Source of the DNA: Escherichia coli
Lineage (GTDB): Bacteria > Pseudomonadota > Gammaproteobacteria > Enterobacterales > Enterobacteriaceae
Strand: one strand, 5' to 3'
DNA length: 64,000 nucleotides
Assembly: GCF_002854065.1 (NCBI RefSeq)
Contig: NZ_CP024147.1
Under the pieces are notes generated by a model, which worked only from the letters and a program-made list of their open reading frames with translations, had not been told where the DNA came from and ran no database searches. The position numbers and the translations under genes are program-made. Below are positions 6,598 through 17,273 of this stretch, piece after piece. Each line of letters opens with the position of its first letter. The stretch's first letter is position 1.

Positions 6598-8700
6598 TTA
6601 CTCAAATCGCCATGCGATATTCACGCCGACACCATAATTTCGCCCGGGCGCAGGTTCGTAATATCGCCCGTTTGACTCATTGACAATGACAGAACCAACG
6701 TATTCTTTATCGAATAAATTATCGACACGACCAAATAAGTCCACAGTTAAATTGTGGTAATTGTATTTATACCCGGTGAATAAGCCGACGAGAGTATAAG
6801 ACGGCGCTTTGGCCGTATTTTCATCATCTGCCATAATATCGCCCATATAACGCGCTTCCGTGCCTGCATACCAACCATCTTCCGGTACATAACCTATCGA
6901 CGCAAAGCCCATATTACGGGCGATCCCTGGCATCCGATTACCGTTACAATCCTGTTCGTTGCAAACATTGCTGCGATAGGTCGCATCAAGCCAGGTCCAG
7001 GACGCGTTTACGCGAAAATCTCCCGCGAAACGTTGATCCCATGCCAGTTCAGCGCCTTGACGACGGGTCTTTCCGGCATTTTTGTAAGTCGTACGCCCAC
7101 CGCTACTGCTATCGACAACAATTTCATCATCGGTGTCGGTCTGGAACAATGCGAGACTAAGCAGCCCATCACCAATACGCGTTTTACTGCCGATCTCAAT
7201 TGTATCGTTGGTGGATGGTTTTAAACCAAAGTTCATACCGCTTTGCCCATCAGCGCGATAAGACAGCTCATTAATCGTCGGCGTTTCAAAACCTCGACCA
7301 GCTGCCAGATAGATATTCCAGGCATCAGTCATTGCATATTTTAACGATCCGGCAGGTAGCCATTTGTGATAACTGGCATCACCACTGTCATCGCCGTTAC
7401 CCGGAGTAACGTAATGGTCGTTGGAATCAAACCACACGGAGCTGTAGCGCACGCCAGCATCCAGCGACAGTTTTTCGCTCAGCTGCCACTGCGTTTGTAA
7501 ATAGGGATCGACGTTCCACATCAGATTGCGTTCGTCGCGACGCAACTCACCTTTTTGCCCGTATTCCGGCACGCCGCTATTCAGGCGGAAATTATTGTAG
7601 CCCTTGCGGTTTTCACTCATGTTTTCGTAGTTCAGACCGGTGGTGAACGTGACTGGAACGCCCAGTTCACCTCGGTGTGTCCAGCGACTGTCTATCCCCT
7701 GGTAATGGCGTTGTAGAGTAATCACGCCACCCGCGTGTGACGGGTTAAGTTGTGGTGCCATCGGGATGGACTGGTATTGGGTCGTTTCACGTTCACCTGC
7801 GTACATCATTACACTCATATCATCGCTTGCGCTAAGACTACGCTCATAACGCAACCCAGCCTGAGTTTGCTTGATGGTTTTTCGCGTGTCGTACTGTTCA
7901 GCGCGTGGCGCTTGTTGTGGATTCGCCTTCCATTCTGCTTCGGTTAATCCACCAGGATCATCTGCTTTTATATCCACACTATTGAAAATCAGGCTTAATT
8001 TGCTGACTTCATCAATGCGTACGCCCAGTTTGGCATTGGCTAAATTTTTCTGTGCGCCACTATGGTCACGGTAGCCGTGGGTCGTAAAGCGCGTGGTTGA
8101 GACGGTGTAATCGACATCGCCAGGCTGTGTACCGTCGCCCATTGCGCCCGTTGCTTTCAGCCCATAGCGCCAGCTGCCAAAACTGCCGTAGTAACTGCTG
8201 GCTTCAATGGTTGGTGGCTGTTGCCCGGTCTGGGTGGTGACATTCATTACCCCGCCAGACGCGTTGCCATACAGGGCAGAGAAGGGGCCACGCAGCACTT
8301 CTACATTTTGCACACTGCTTAAATCGATGTTGGATGTTTGCCCTTGTCCGTCGGGCATGGTGGCGGGAATACCGTCTACATACAGGCGAATACCGCGAAT
8401 TCCGTAAGTGGAGCGGGAGCCAAATCCGCGAATCGACAGCTGTAAATCTTGCGCATAGTTCTGCCGGTTTTGTACCTGCAAACCAGGCACGCTGGTCAGA
8501 GATTCAGACAAGTTGATGCGCGGTGTTGCCAGGCGCATCTCCTCGCCATCCACCACGCTTACTGCTGCTGGCGTATCCAGCTCGGAAACCACCTGCGGCG
8601 CGGCACTGACAATCATGGTTTGTTCATCAGCGGCAAAAACGGCGGGGGAAAGGACAAGCAGCGCGGACAAAACGGTCTGTCGGGCGGAAAAAATCTTCAT
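6598..8700 (-). CDS. yncD: TonB-dependent outer membrane receptor YncD
   Basis: 700 aa; signal peptide, plug and beta-barrel; C-terminal aromatic residue (NIAWRFE). Confidence 0.9.
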   Translation of the reverse strand: MKIFSARQTVLSALLVLSPAVFAADEQTMIVSAAPQVVSELDTPAAVSVVDGEEMRLATPRINLSESLTSVPGLQVQNRQNYAQDLQLSIRGFGSRSTYGIRGIRLYVDGIPATMPDGQGQTSNIDLSSVQNVEVLRGPFSALYGNASGGVMNVTTQTGQQPPTIEASSYYGSFGSWRYGLKATGAMGDGTQPGDVDYTVSTTRFTTHGYRDHSGAQKNLANAKLGVRIDEVSKLSLIFNSVDIKADDPGGLTEAEWKANPQQAPRAEQYDTRKTIKQTQAGLRYERSLSASDDMSVMMYAGERETTQYQSIPMAPQLNPSHAGGVITLQRHYQGIDSRWTHRGELGVPVTFTTGLNYENMSENRKGYNNFRLNSGVPEYGQKGELRRDERNLMWNVDPYLQTQWQLSEKLSLDAGVRYSSVWFDSNDHYVTPGNGDDSGDASYHKWLPAGSLKYAMTDAWNIYLAAGRGFETPTINELSYRADGQSGMNFGLKPSTNDTIEIGSKTRIGDGLLSLALFQTDTDDEIVVDSSSGGRTTYKNAGKTRRQGAELAWDQRFAGDFRVNASWTWLDATYRSNVCNEQDCNGNRMPGIARNMGFASIGYVPEDGWYAGTEARYMGDIMADDENTAKAPSYTLVGLFTGYKYNYHNLTVDLFGRVDNLFDKEYVGSVIVNESNGRYYEPAPGRNYGVGVNIAWRFE

Positions 8701-12599: not shown

Positions 12600-13130
12600 A
12601 TGTCATTAAGGAGAATGACATCTGGTGAATTAGCATTGGCCAGATCGATTTTTGAAAATACAATTGATTATAGTAAGGTATGGATCCACAATGAAAAATA
12701 TTTGCCGGGTCAAGGGGAAAGAACAGCGATGACCCCAAACGGGGAAATGTATTATCCTGATGCTGTTTATAGTTCAGATTATTCATCGCAAACAATGCCT
12801 GGTGATCGTGAAACAGTAGCAGGTGCTTCTCACTTGTTTATTCATGAAATGATGCATGTTTGGCAATATCAGAAAGGGTATGCAGTTAAGTTGCGTGGTT
12901 TATTTTCCTGGGCGGCAAATTATCATTACGATCTTAATTTACAGTCAATTTCTTCTTATTCCATGGAACAACAAGCATCTATAGTTGCTGATTATTGGCT
13001 ATTGATTAACTATGGACTGGTGGCTGATTTGGCAAATGTTAACTATGTAGGTGATACAACTGAATCCGTTAACACTCTATCGGAAAAATACAAAAAGGTG
13101 CTTAATTTATTTCCTGCGGGTGTCATATGA
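12600..13130 (+). CDS. HExxH zincin-like protein, DUF4157-like (putative effector/toxin)
   Basis: 176 aa; strong AGGAGGTAGG ribosome-binding site; no signal peptide; motif string IDYSKVWIHNE...ERTAMTPNGEMYYP...HLFIHEMMHVWQYQ resembles my recollection of the DUF4157 consensus (DLSxVRVH...AFTxG...LLAHELxHVxQQ); AT-rich context. Confidence 0.55.
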   Translation: MSLRRMTSGELALARSIFENTIDYSKVWIHNEKYLPGQGERTAMTPNGEMYYPDAVYSSDYSSQTMPGDRETVAGASHLFIHEMMHVWQYQKGYAVKLRGLFSWAANYHYDLNLQSISSYSMEQQASIVADYWLLINYGLVADLANVNYVGDTTESVNTLSEKYKKVLNLFPAGVI

Positions 13131-13483
13131 AGAGATTCTTTTTGTTTTTCTTTTTGTCGGGATGCACTGTTGGTGATTATGTTCGCCCATTGTTACCCGG
13201 TAATGTATATTTACAAGATGGACGGGTTTGTTCAAAACCAGACGATGGAGGTATTATTTCAAATTATATTTTATATGAAGGTAAATATGGCAATGCAATA
13301 AAGCTGAAAAGAGTAACAGGTCAGTTCGACCCCGTATGTATTGACATAAGTGAGCTATCTTCAGATGTTATTTATATCGGGCAATATATGCTCTCTTCCG
13401 GAAGTAAAAAAGAATACTATGGTTTTAGAATAATTAGATCCGGAGTACGTATTTTAAGACTTGATGATAACCATATCAAATAA
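13127..13483 (+). CDS. small lipoprotein, translationally coupled partner (putative immunity/inhibitor)
   Basis: 118 aa; ATGA start/stop overlap with the upstream gene; lipobox FLSGC (signal MKRFFLFFFLSGC). Confidence 0.55.
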   Translation: MKRFFLFFFLSGCTVGDYVRPLLPGNVYLQDGRVCSKPDDGGIISNYILYEGKYGNAIKLKRVTGQFDPVCIDISELSSDVIYIGQYMLSSGSKKEYYGFRIIRSGVRILRLDDNHIK

Positions 13484-13703: not shown

Positions 13704-15191
13704 ATGAGTTTTGCAGCTACAGATTATCCATCCGGCGCACTAACTGGATCGGGTACACATAACGTGACTTTGAGCGGCAGCGCAGTTCCTGATGGAATGT
13801 TACTGTTTGCAAGCTTAGGGGGTACAGAAACAGTAGGGGAACTATTTACTTATTCTATTAAATTAAAAACTCCTGACATCCTGAACCTGGGCTATGTTTC
13901 CCCCGCCGCAAACCTGCAGCTCAAACCGATGGTGGGCAAAGATCTGTGCGTCCATATCGAACTGGATGGCGGCGGAAAACGTTATATCAGCGGGCTGGTG
14001 ACGGCGGCACGCGTGGCTGGTCATCAAGGACGTTCGGTGGTGTATGAACTGCGGCTCGAACCGTGGTTAAAAATACTGACCCACACTAGTGACTACAAAG
14101 CGTTTCAGAATAAAAACGTGGTGGACATCCTGGATGAGGTACTGGATGAGTATCCCTGGCCAGTGGAAAAACGGCTGGTGGAAAATTATCCGACTCGCGC
14201 CTGGCAGATGCAGTACGGTGAAACAGATTTCGCTTTTATTCAGCGCCTGATGCAGGAGTGGGGTATCTACTGGTGGTTTGAGCACAGCGAGAACAGTCAC
14301 ACGTTAGTGCTGGCTGATGCCATTAATGTCCACAAGGCATGCGCAGATTCGCCGCTGGTGTGTTATTACCAGAAAGGGCTGAAACTGGACAAGGAGTTTA
14401 TCCATACCATCACAGCAAATGAAAGTCTGCGCAGCGGACAGTGGGTGCTGAATGATTTCGACTTTATGAAGCCGCGTTCACTGCTGAAGAGCACCGTGGC
14501 TAATCCGCGTGAAACCGGCCTTGCTGAATATGAGCACTACGAATGGCCGGGAGATTACTTCACAAAGAGTGAAGGTGAAATGCTGACACGCATTCGCATG
14601 GAAGAACAGCGTAGCCCCGGTAGTCGGGTACAGGGCAGCGGCAATATTCGTACCCTGATGACAGGTTTTACCTTCACCCTGGAAAACTATCCGACAGCCG
14701 AAGTGAACCGGGAATATCTGCTGGTACAGACCACGCTATTTATACAGGACAATGCGCAACACAGCGGCCAGGAGCAGCATTTCTCTTACTCAACCAGCTT
14801 TGAACTGCATCCCACCAGCGAAGTTTACCGCCCACAACGAACCCTGAGCAAACCCCACACTAAAGGCCCGCAGAGTGCCATCGTCACCGGCCCGGCAGGG
14901 CAGGAAATCTGGACAGATAAATATGGCCGGGTGAAAGTTCAGTTTGGCTGGGATCGTTACGGTAAGAATGACGAAAACAGCTCCTGCTGGGTCCGTGTCA
15001 GTTATCCGTGGGCTGGTAAAGGATTCGGTGGCATTCAGATCCCGCGTATTGGTCAAGAAGTACTGGTGGATTTCAAAAACGGTGATCCGGATTTACCGAT
15101 AATCGTTGGGCGTACCTACAACCAGGACACCATGCCACCGTGGGGACTACCTGAACGGCGTGTACGACAGCACGGGGCACCTGCTGCGTGA
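13704..15191 (+). pseudogene. vgrG: vgrG, N-terminal portion only (T6SS spike protein), truncated
   Basis: 495 aa ORF containing the VgrG gp27/gp5 signature ([39 protein letters not shown]); the frame ends shortly after this motif, well short of a full-length VgrG. Confidence 0.75.
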
Positions 15192-15298
15192 GTTTGCTTA
15201 CGACGAAAACCACTGCATGACGCTGCACCGCCAGCCGGGCGGCGAAGGGTATTATTACCAGTGGGGCTGGTATGACGGTCCGGATGATGCGGCGTGGC
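15145..15298 (+). other. Rhs/YD-repeat-like remnant fused out of frame to the vgrG end
   Basis: Alternative frame reads [44 protein letters not shown], a YD-repeat-like pattern; short and without a proper start. Confidence 0.35.
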
Positions 15299-15513
15299 GG
15301 GCACCCCTCCGAAATCTTCACCGTGACACCCCGCCCGGTATCAAATCCGGCCTCTTTCAGCCAGTCGCCCTTAAGGTTCAGGCTGGGGTGTCGTGAGTAG
15401 TACGTGGTCATGTAGGTTTTGCTGTTTATGTGGCGGGCTCTGACATAGCCGACTTTATAGCGTCGCTGTGTTTTGGAAATGGTGACTTCTGGCGTAATAT
15501 CGTGTTCAGCCAT
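15286..15513 (-). pseudogene. SymE-like (AbrB-fold) type I toxin, N-terminal ~76 aa, 3-prime end replaced
   Basis: AGGAG ribosome-binding site plus ATG at 15513; [34 protein letters not shown] aligns with SymE (...[38 protein letters not shown]); after EGC the frame runs antisense into the Rhs/vgrG remnant. Confidence 0.5.
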
Positions 15514-15826
15514 GATTAACTACTCCTGTTAGTTGCTTGTGGTGAGCGGCTGTTACAGGCGGCCACCTGTAGCAGTCGCGTTAAATATCAACGCATTACC
15601 TTCATTACCTGCTTCATCTTCTCCTGCGTGATCGCCATATCCAGAATACGGCAGATCACTTCCTGATCGTCTGCTTTAAGCTCAGGGAAAGATCATCAGA
15701 AGTTCACTTTTTGTACTAAATAATTCGCATTTTATGTTTAAAAATTGAGATATTCCTCATTACCTGAAGCTGTTTTTTATTGCTTATACATGATCAAATA
15801 CTCCTTACATAATTAAGGAGAACAAA

Positions 15827-16963
15827 ATGGAACTTAAAAAATTGATGGAACATATTTCTATTACCCCCGATTACAGACAAGTCTGGAAAGTGGAACATAA
15901 ATTATCAGATATTCTACTGTTGACTATTTGTGCCGTTATTTCGGGTGCAGAAGGTTGGGAAGATATAGAGGATTTTGGGGAAACACATCTCGATTTTTTG
16001 AAGCAATATGGTGATTTTGAAAATGGTATTCCTGTTCACGATACCATTGCCAGAGTTGTATCCTGTATCAGCCCTACAAAATTTCATGAGTGCTTTATTA
16101 ACTGGATGCGTGATTGTCATTCTTCAGATGATAAAGACGTCATTGCAATTGATGGAAAAACGCTCCGGCATTCTTATGATAAGAGTCGCCGCAGGGGAGC
16201 GATTCATGTCATTAGTGCGTTCTCAACAATGCACAGTCTGTTCATCGGACAGATCAAGACGGATGAGAAATCTAATGAGATTACAGCTATCCCTGAACTT
16301 CTTAACATGCTGGATATTAAAGGGAAAATTATCACAACTGATACGATGGGTTGCCAGAAAGATATCGCAGAGAAGATACAAAAACAGGGCGGTGATTATT
16401 TATTCGCGGTAAAAGGTAACCAGGGGCGGCTTAATAAAGCCTTTGAGGAAAAATTTCCGCTGAAAGAATTAAATAATCCAGAGCATGACAGTTACGCAAT
16501 GAGTGAAAAGAGTCACGGCAGAGAAGAAATCCGTCTTCATATTGTTTGCGATGTCCCTGATGAACTTATTGATTTCACGTTTGAATGGAAATGGCTGAAG
16601 AAATTATGCGTGGCAGTCTCCTTTCGGTCCATAATAGCAGAACAAAAGAAAGAGCCAGAAATGACGGTCAGATATTATATCAGTTCTGATGATTTAACCC
16701 CAGAGAAGTTCGCCAGAGCAATCCGAAACCACTGGCACGTGGAGAATAAGCTGCACTGGCGTCTGGACGTGGTAATGAATGAAGACGACTGCAAAATAAG
16801 AAGAGGAAATGCAGCAGAATTATTTTCAGGGATACGGCACATTGCTATTAATATTTTGACGAATGATAAGGTATTCAAGGCAGGGTTAAGACGTAAGATG
16901 CGAAAAGCAGCCATGGACAGAAACTATCTGGCGTCAGTCCTTGCGGGGAGCGGGCTTTCGTAA
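15827..16963 (+). mobile_element. ISAs1-family transposase (Rhs-associated H-repeat protein, YdcC/YhhI-like), intact ORF
   Basis: 378 aa ORF with AAGGAGAACAAA ribosome-binding site; H-repeat protein hallmarks ([12 protein letters not shown]..., ...[32 protein letters not shown]...); inverted-repeat ends not delimited. Confidence 0.85.
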
Positions 16964-17273
16964 TCTTGCCCTGGTTCGTTGAGTTTTACTGCATTGTCGG
17001 TAATTTAGGCATCTCCTTTGTCCGTAGCTTGTTTCAGCGTCTATAATGGGCGTTAATAAATTGGCAAGTCGGGAACTAGATGTTTTCTTAATGGTATGTT
17101 GGCAGAAGAATATGTTCTGCAAGTTGAAGATTTGTTGGTGCTTTATTTAAAAGGGTGTAGTGCAAATATCTACAATTTCAAGCAGGCATTATTGTCGTAA
17201 AAACGCTTTACCGGACACACGACATTCACAATGTGTGTTAATTTTACTGACATCTTTCAAAAGGAGCGTAATC

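Follow-up and report, generated by a model that had tools for sequence, protein, structure and literature searches.

Remnant of a SymE-family gene, with a SymR-like antisense RNA gene, in a decayed Rhs region of Escherichia coli

Does a gene resembling the type I toxin gene symE, lying among vgrG and Rhs remnants, still specify a toxin, or is it a by-product of the decay around it? The locus studied here lies in a 64,000-nucleotide stretch of Escherichia coli DNA (contig NZ_CP024147.1; hereafter the window, to which coordinates refer unless another locus is named). We conclude, with a probability of roughly 90%, that the symE feature is a decayed relic and not a working toxin gene. Two parts of the minus-strand open frame have to be told apart:

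15300-15513, minus strand: truncated 5' fragment of a SymE-family gene, codons 1-71 of about 109 (Pfam, BLASTP, PGAP, alignment with intact copies)
15073-15299, minus strand: non-homologous tail of the same open frame, 75 codons (ORF list; divergence from intact copies after GGGTGCC)

The complete frame, 15513..15073 in the ORF list, comprises 146 aa, and an AGGAG ribosome-binding site (RBS) lies 9 nt 5' of the start ATG at 15513. A preliminary description had called this ORF SymE-like, and formal alignment, which could have returned no similarity to SymE or AbrB-fold proteins, bore it out: Pfam SymE_toxin (PF08845) matched residues 16-71 with E=2.2e-17 and 63.3 bits over model positions 1-49 of 54, and BLASTP aligned the fragment with K-12 SymE at E=1e-14, 20 of 33 residues (61%) being identical across the LKGxWLxxAGFxxGxxVxVKxxEGC core. 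DNA identity to intact, 109-aa copies is 98-99% up to 15300, runs to GGGTGCC and is followed by complete divergence. The same description's view of the gene as a 3'-truncated SymE fragment thus stands, while its extent of about 76 aa, ending at 15286, has to be shortened, homology stopping at 15300/15301 after 71 codons. Automated annotation agrees: in strain 100416, PGAP has a 210-bp pseudogene here (window 15304-15513), named SymE family type I addiction module toxin and marked as incomplete, with its C-terminus missing.

The fragment, which stops at ...VKISEGC, retains the tail at its N-terminus and the greater part of the AbrB/MazE-like domain and has lost the last β-strand, the C-terminal helical region and the last 38 codons; a complete domain plus C-terminal region, as in the intact gene of about 97-113 aa, was looked for in the fragment and is absent. 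In the account of SymE given in a review (PMC11894785), which cites Thompson et al. 2022 and sets out the domain layout, the protein binds DNA and condenses the nucleoid and is not an RNase, and its C-terminal region serves oligomerisation. The product of the fragment would be inactive, because its end falls within the final strand of the domain that binds DNA and its C-terminal region is gone.

The 3' truncation coincides with a rearrangement of the convergent Rhs and vgrG remnants:

13704-15151, plus strand: vgrG pseudogene, codons 1-483 of 664 (478 of 483 residues identical to WP_000006344.1; pseudogene in PGAP)
15149-15301, plus strand: Rhs core scrap of 51 codons, aa 597-647 of a 1571-aa Rhs protein (BLASTP, 49 of 51 identical, E=8e-35; junction alignment)

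As had been proposed, symE ends at a deletion junction (15300/15301) that leaves it convergent with these remnants. The codons that follow EGC in the 146-aa frame are not SymE and do run antisense, as first read, into the Rhs scrap and only then into vgrG, an order that the earlier reading had not spelled out. Its further suggestion that one and the same rearrangement had cut symE and fused vgrG to Rhs fails, as junction alignments separate two events. The out-of-frame vgrG/Rhs junction carries a 3-nt microhomology (ACC, 15149-15151) and that between Rhs and symE one of 2 nt (GG, 15300-15301), and comparison with strain 06-00048 gives two separate deletions of about 2.9 kb and 3.3 kb. Between them, these took away the 3' end of vgrG, a DcrB/Eag-like chaperone gene, the greater part of Rhs along with the toxin tip (CT), the immunity gene and 38 codons at the end of symE. 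An intact T6SS VgrG-Rhs effector locus was looked for in the window; vgrG is cut, Rhs is a scrap, and neither chaperone nor toxin tip nor immunity gene is present. Just 5' of vgrG (12600-13483, plus strand), a 176-aa protein with an HEMMH motif carries the PGAP name type IV secretion protein Rhs and precedes one of 118 aa that weakly resembles a family of putative T6SS immunity lipoproteins (30.7 bits, cut-off 43); these two probably constitute another effector/immunity pair.

Upstream of symE, a second gene has been reduced to a remnant:

15588-15683, minus strand: remnant of an XRE/Cro-cI (RstR-like) HTH gene, ELKADDQEVICRILDMAITQEKMKQVMKVMR*, the last 31 codons and stop of a 132-aa gene (31 of 31 residues identical to residues 102-132 of WP_001401944.1)
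~15686 to at least 16963, plus strand: ISAs1-family element (H-repeat, ydcC) that interrupts the HTH gene (NCBIfam transpos_ISAs1, 407 bits, cut-off 70)

The earlier guess that a short C-terminal remnant upstream could be what is left of a partner gene was right in substance, the partner being the RstR-like HTH gene, and off in position, the remnant lying about 45 nt from 15541-15640, where it had been placed. The HTH_3 domain, residues 20-74 of the intact protein (Pfam, 7e-12), was tested for in the remnant and is absent. In 45 E. coli genomes, the gene for this protein immediately precedes that for SymE. The ISAs1 transposase ORF occupies 15827-16963, and the left end of the element is placed at about 15686; IS-proximal sequence is common to other loci up to GATCTTTCC, and an inverted-repeat search returned no clean terminal inverted repeats for the element. 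Relative to the ISAs1-truncated remnant of 06-00048, a further 132 bp are gone from the window's HTH remnant (15681-15690 versus L003 6140-6280), a loss of 44 codons that is in frame and has a GA microhomology. Over about 12 nt, the window's ISAs1 end differs from other copies.

Comparison with intact loci in other strains, which the preliminary description had proposed, allowed a probable ancestral gene order to be recovered. At the window's own chromosomal site, the intact comparators were APEC 102026, 06-00048 and SCU-111; further ones came from the rhsC/ybgA site. In strain 100416 the locus is flanked by ansP/yncE on one side and by ydcC, pptA, yddH and nhoA on the other. Judging from intact ansP-pptA loci, the ancestor would have carried, in order, vgrG, an Eag/DcrB-like chaperone gene, Rhs, the immunity gene and a convergent SymE gene preceded by an RstR-like HTH gene, with a SymR-like antisense RNA starting within symE and reading over the start codon and RBS of that gene. 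Three events separate the window from this state: loss of about 2.9 kb joined vgrG codon 483 to Rhs codon 597 (at ACC, out of frame); loss of about 3.3 kb joined Rhs codon 647 to symE codon 71 (at GG), at the cost of the toxin tip, the immunity gene and 38 symE codons; and an ISAs1 element plus the further 132-bp deletion left just 31 HTH codons. The sequence of these three events and the co-transcription of the HTH gene with symE are inferred. The idea that the locus marks a former toxin cassette is borne out by the same comparison, in which the Rhs toxin tip and immunity gene of the intact loci prove to have been deleted.

In its intact form, the module would comprise a DNA-binding, nucleoid-condensing SymE toxin whose translation is stopped by pairing with SymR; symE would be transcribed together with the HTH repressor gene and not from a LexA-controlled promoter, and the whole may serve as a maintenance (addiction) module of a mobile unit bearing Rhs CT/immunity cassettes. 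At the window locus, active SymE is presumably no longer made, because the upstream operon promoter has been lost and the SymR-like repressor RNA is intact. The sole part that could still function is the SymR-like RNA of about 75 nt.

A search at the 5' end of symE for a SymR-like antisense gene, again proposed at the outset, identified a candidate for such a gene together with a putative promoter:

15508-15582, plus strand: SymR-like cis-antisense RNA gene with two hairpins (Rfam RF01809, fold, K-12 geometry)
15473-15500, plus strand: putative symR promoter, TTGGAA, a 16-nt spacer and TAATAT, 7 nt to A15508 (read from the sequence)

The match to Rfam symR (RF01809) spans the full model, 1-77, with E=5.5e-5 and 39.2 bits, which is under the gathering score of 61; as controls, K-12 symR scored 95.3 bits and other Rhs-linked copies 48-54 bits. 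The gene overlaps the symE start codon by 6 nt, as does K-12 symR, and spans the RBS and 5'UTR. Its RNA has a predicted minimum free energy of -36 kcal/mol (z=-4.5, 0/200 shuffles) and the two-hairpin shape of K-12 SymR; the opposite strand folds with z=-1.1. Moreover, the 3' stem of 14-16 bp pairs in four sequence types, that of K-12 and three Rhs-linked ones, with most positions differing: changes occur on both sides of pairs, and G-U pairs valid on the SymR strand are mismatched on the mRNA strand. Several independent features support the view that the gene is probably a real SymR homolog. The putative promoter lies within the symE coding sequence and agrees with the consensus at 8 of 12 positions. 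In K-12, the -10 candidate TAGAAT is also 7 nt from the annotated symR +1, in the same register as TAATAT in the window; this register is what we argue from, because a formal promoter/terminator scan of 15250-15850 at a threshold of 9/12 called none for either symE or symR.

A block of about 95 nt (window ~15451-15548; loci L002, L003, L005, L010, L012 and L013), which begins at the foot of the SymR 3' hairpin, takes in the RBS and ATG and stops near symE codon 20, is nearly invariant among paralogs, with flanks that are 50-80% identical; the HTH genes and symE bodies of copies sharing it have diverged. The putative symR promoter and predicted 5' hairpin inside the block are enough to explain its conservation, and the block could be a recombination site as well. 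The SymE copy on the ybgA side (L005 590-675, L007 ~6960-7045) is without the SymR 3' hairpin and folds with z=+0.35, and the sequence upstream of it resembles the ISAs1 3' end (CTTTCGTAATCTTGCCCTG; window 16953-16976), a likeness suggesting that this portion of symR was replaced by an IS end.

A second Rfam family also matches the plus strand of the fragment:

15314-15442, plus strand: isrA match, antisense to symE codons ~24-66 (RF01385; 119.3 bits versus a gathering score of 51, E=3e-27, model 1-129)

The isrA match is also present on intact symE copies. IsrA is a 423-nt sRNA of a Salmonella island, cis-antisense to STM0294.1n and expressed inversely to it (Padalon-Brauch et al. 2008; PMC2330248). 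Because the isrA model matches the antisense strand of a symE coding region, we infer that Salmonella STM0294.1n is probably a SymE-family gene, which would make IsrA/STM0294.1n a sense/antisense pair of that family. The likeness to IsrA is that the 119-bit match lies antisense to the symE coding region, as IsrA does to its overlapping gene; the differences are that the Salmonella RNA measures 423 nt and that the match in the window starts 14 nt from the deletion junction at 15300. No sigma-70-like -10 is visible upstream of 15314. In addition, Rfam Ssr1 (Shigella sRNA 1) gave partial, sub-threshold matches antisense to SymE copies in other loci, so that three Rfam sRNA families (symR, isrA and Ssr1) all lie antisense to SymE-family genes.

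These RNAs give rise to the alternative that survives best, namely that the locus persists as an RNA locus whose orphan SymR-like RNA, perhaps along with an IsrA-like RNA, would repress, in trans, intact symE paralogs elsewhere in the genome. The SymR-like gene is complete and its product predicted to be well folded; the block with the putative symR promoter and 5' hairpin is nearly invariant between diverged flanks, and the RNA, being perfectly complementary to this block in symE paralogs, might act in trans, a second matching place in the source genome being a candidate copy. Yet the putative symR promoter is weak by consensus, the isrA region has probably lost its own promoter, given the junction 14 nt away, and retention of the locus may reflect nothing other than a recent deletion. 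We regard this alternative as unlikely.

Far less probable is a functional chimera, in which the 146-aa ORF would combine the SymE N-terminus with a new C-terminus and might be a dominant-negative or attenuated SymE. Such a protein would account for a frame that is open for 146 codons behind a strong AGGAG RBS, for the recognition of 49 of 54 domain positions by Pfam and for an allele common to two genomes. However, its tail is antisense Rhs/vgrG and places two prolines at the expected last β-strand, the C-terminal oligomerisation region is absent, the upstream HTH gene and promoter are destroyed, the minus strand has no promoter-like site upstream, the SymR-like repressor is intact and PGAP calls the gene a pseudogene. 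The segment 15100-15830 is 100% identical in strains 100416 and CUWW06, and among 5426 complete E. coli genomes these two alone have the whole arrangement, a rarity that argues against selection.

The preliminary description had also called SymE SOS-induced. For the window copy, this label does not apply, because it has no LexA box: the full LexA consensus, allowing up to 3 mismatches, had no match near the symE locus, CTGT-N8-ACAG with at most 1 mismatch was absent from 15300-15830, and the K-12 LexA box TACTGATGATATATACAGGTA aligns to unrelated sequence here. Against the SymE equivalog model of NCBIfam (NF010128; cut-off 132 bits), the fragment scored 42.3 bits and intact paralogs 47-51 bits. 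Because of this score and the 42% identity of an intact paralog to K-12 SymE, the fragment is, by sequence comparison, a paralog and not an ortholog of K-12 SymE. That it is instead the true K-12 symE/symR ortholog, an SOS-induced, LexA-controlled type I pair that has been relocated, can be dismissed as most improbable: the shared Pfam family and the like SymR geometry and fold speak for it, and these scores, the missing LexA box and the HTH gene that paralogs have upstream in its place speak against it.

Several known systems come close to the window locus. K-12 symE/symR (b4347/b4625) shares with it the AbrB/MazE-like SymE_toxin domain, the EGC core motif, an antisense RNA of 75-77 nt (predicted in the window) starting 6 nt inside the ORF, the two-hairpin fold and the register of the -10 candidate; the present annotation of the K-12 protein is that of a nucleoid-associated DNA-binding protein. 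The K-12 pair adjoins the hsd/mcr region, whereas the window paralog is tied to an HTH repressor and Rhs cassettes, lacks a LexA box and is cut after codon 71. In K-12, the chromosomal site of the window holds rhsE-ydcD-yncI-ydcC, and the two loci resemble each other in their position (ansP...ydcC-pptA), their degraded Rhs and an ISAs1/H-repeat at the distal edge; they differ in that no SymE remnant is annotated at this site in K-12 and that, where K-12 has rhsE', the window has kept vgrG' and the Rhs scrap of 51 codons. As in the Rhs orphan arrays of E. coli and Salmonella, related strains carry orphan cassettes consisting of a core end, CT and immunity gene. Over its whole length, the HTH partner in its intact form can be aligned with RstR of CTX-phi/RS1 (NCBIfam NF041951), and both are divergent from replication/integration genes; its score of 78.9 bits lies below the cut-off of 80, and its predicted neighbours are a primase-helicase and an XerC-like recombinase, not rstA/rstB.

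A SymE homolog in an Rhs/vgrG island had been considered unusual at first. It is not: SymE is convergent to, and adjoins, a CT/immunity pair (main Rhs tip, orphan cassette or element-borne cassette) in 19 of 19 copies inspected, which came from nine genomes of E. coli and a single record each of Shigella and Lonsdalea, and the neighbourhood was published in 2007. SymE genes were described there in predicted operons with Cro/cI HTH regulators, near a primase-helicase and in haemagglutinin/RHS neighbourhoods (Kawano et al. 2007, Fig. 7; PMC1891008), and later genome papers place SymE genes within Rhs, CDI and orphan-hcp clusters of Erwinia, Dickeya and Pantoea. The likeness to these cHTH-SymE operons extends to the upstream Cro/cI HTH gene, the nearby DnaG-type primase-helicase and the RHS context; the window differs in keeping its HTH gene only as scraps. 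Kawano et al. 2007 further proposed that control by an sRNA displaced that by a transcription factor (PMC1891008). HTH-linked SymE copies keep the SymR-like gene, in both E. coli and Lonsdalea, a co-occurrence that does not fit the simple displacement reading. The window-type subfamily is a minority accessory gene, with 374 copies among 199 of the 5426 E. coli genomes. SCU-111 has, at the chromosomal site of the window, a third, shorter SymE gene (L013 1-443; 81 aa) next to IS200; it shares 40 bp with the beginning of a divergent pseudogene that bears the name type IV secretion protein Rhs, and this region is another decayed array end.

Intact loci place the HTH and SymE genes in a larger context, as one end of a unit of about 6.6 kb found in strains D6, EC554, PEC395 and SCU-111:

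L005 1800-7600 and 8430-14230; also L006, L010, L012 and L013: ~6.6-kb units, in 0-2 tandem copies at two Rhs loci

The backbone of the unit has 60-70% GC and encodes an XerC-like recombinase (533 bits against PRK01287) as well as a DnaG-type primase-helicase of 910 aa, both divergent from the HTH gene. In its AT-rich cargo, no more than the last ~27 codons of an Rhs core (DPIGL...DPLGL) accompany a toxin tip with its immunity gene, and the junction between backbone and core end is identical in two units with different cargo. At the ybgA-rhsC site, SBF45 has no unit, EC554 one and D6 two; the window's own site holds two in SCU-111. Of 5426 E. coli genomes, 60 have the backbone, always on the chromosome. 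The same architecture appears in two circular records labelled as plasmids, an 8758-bp one from Shigella flexneri (NZ_CP055112.1, L014) and an 11289-bp one with two units from Lonsdalea populi (NZ_CP072857.1, L015), which could represent the element in episomal form or be tandem arrays that collapsed during assembly. None of the papers searched describes a primase/XerC element carrying Rhs tip cassettes.

We tentatively entertain, as a possibility that falls well short of probable, that the HTH'-symR-symE' scrap in the window is the scar of such ~6.6-kb elements, which would deliver new Rhs toxin tips by C-terminal displacement, with SymE/SymR as their addiction module and with the 78-bp Rhs core end or the ~95-nt symE 5' block as their att site. 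The comparisons of sites with no, one and two units are compatible with either location of the att site, within symE or at the end of the Rhs core.

In itself, the window symE is a known family pseudogene that RefSeq/PGAP had already annotated, in a neighbourhood published in 2007; as one more pseudogene at a decaying Rhs locus it is of little importance, and its value is that of a pointer. It points to a SymE subfamily that is a constant companion of Rhs toxin-tip/immunity cassettes, to the SymR-like gene retained by HTH-linked copies, to the three Rfam sRNA families that lie antisense to SymE-family genes and to the linked primase/XerC element, a more interesting lead than the fragment. If that element does act as a shuttle, it would provide a concrete mechanism by which Rhs loci gain new toxins.
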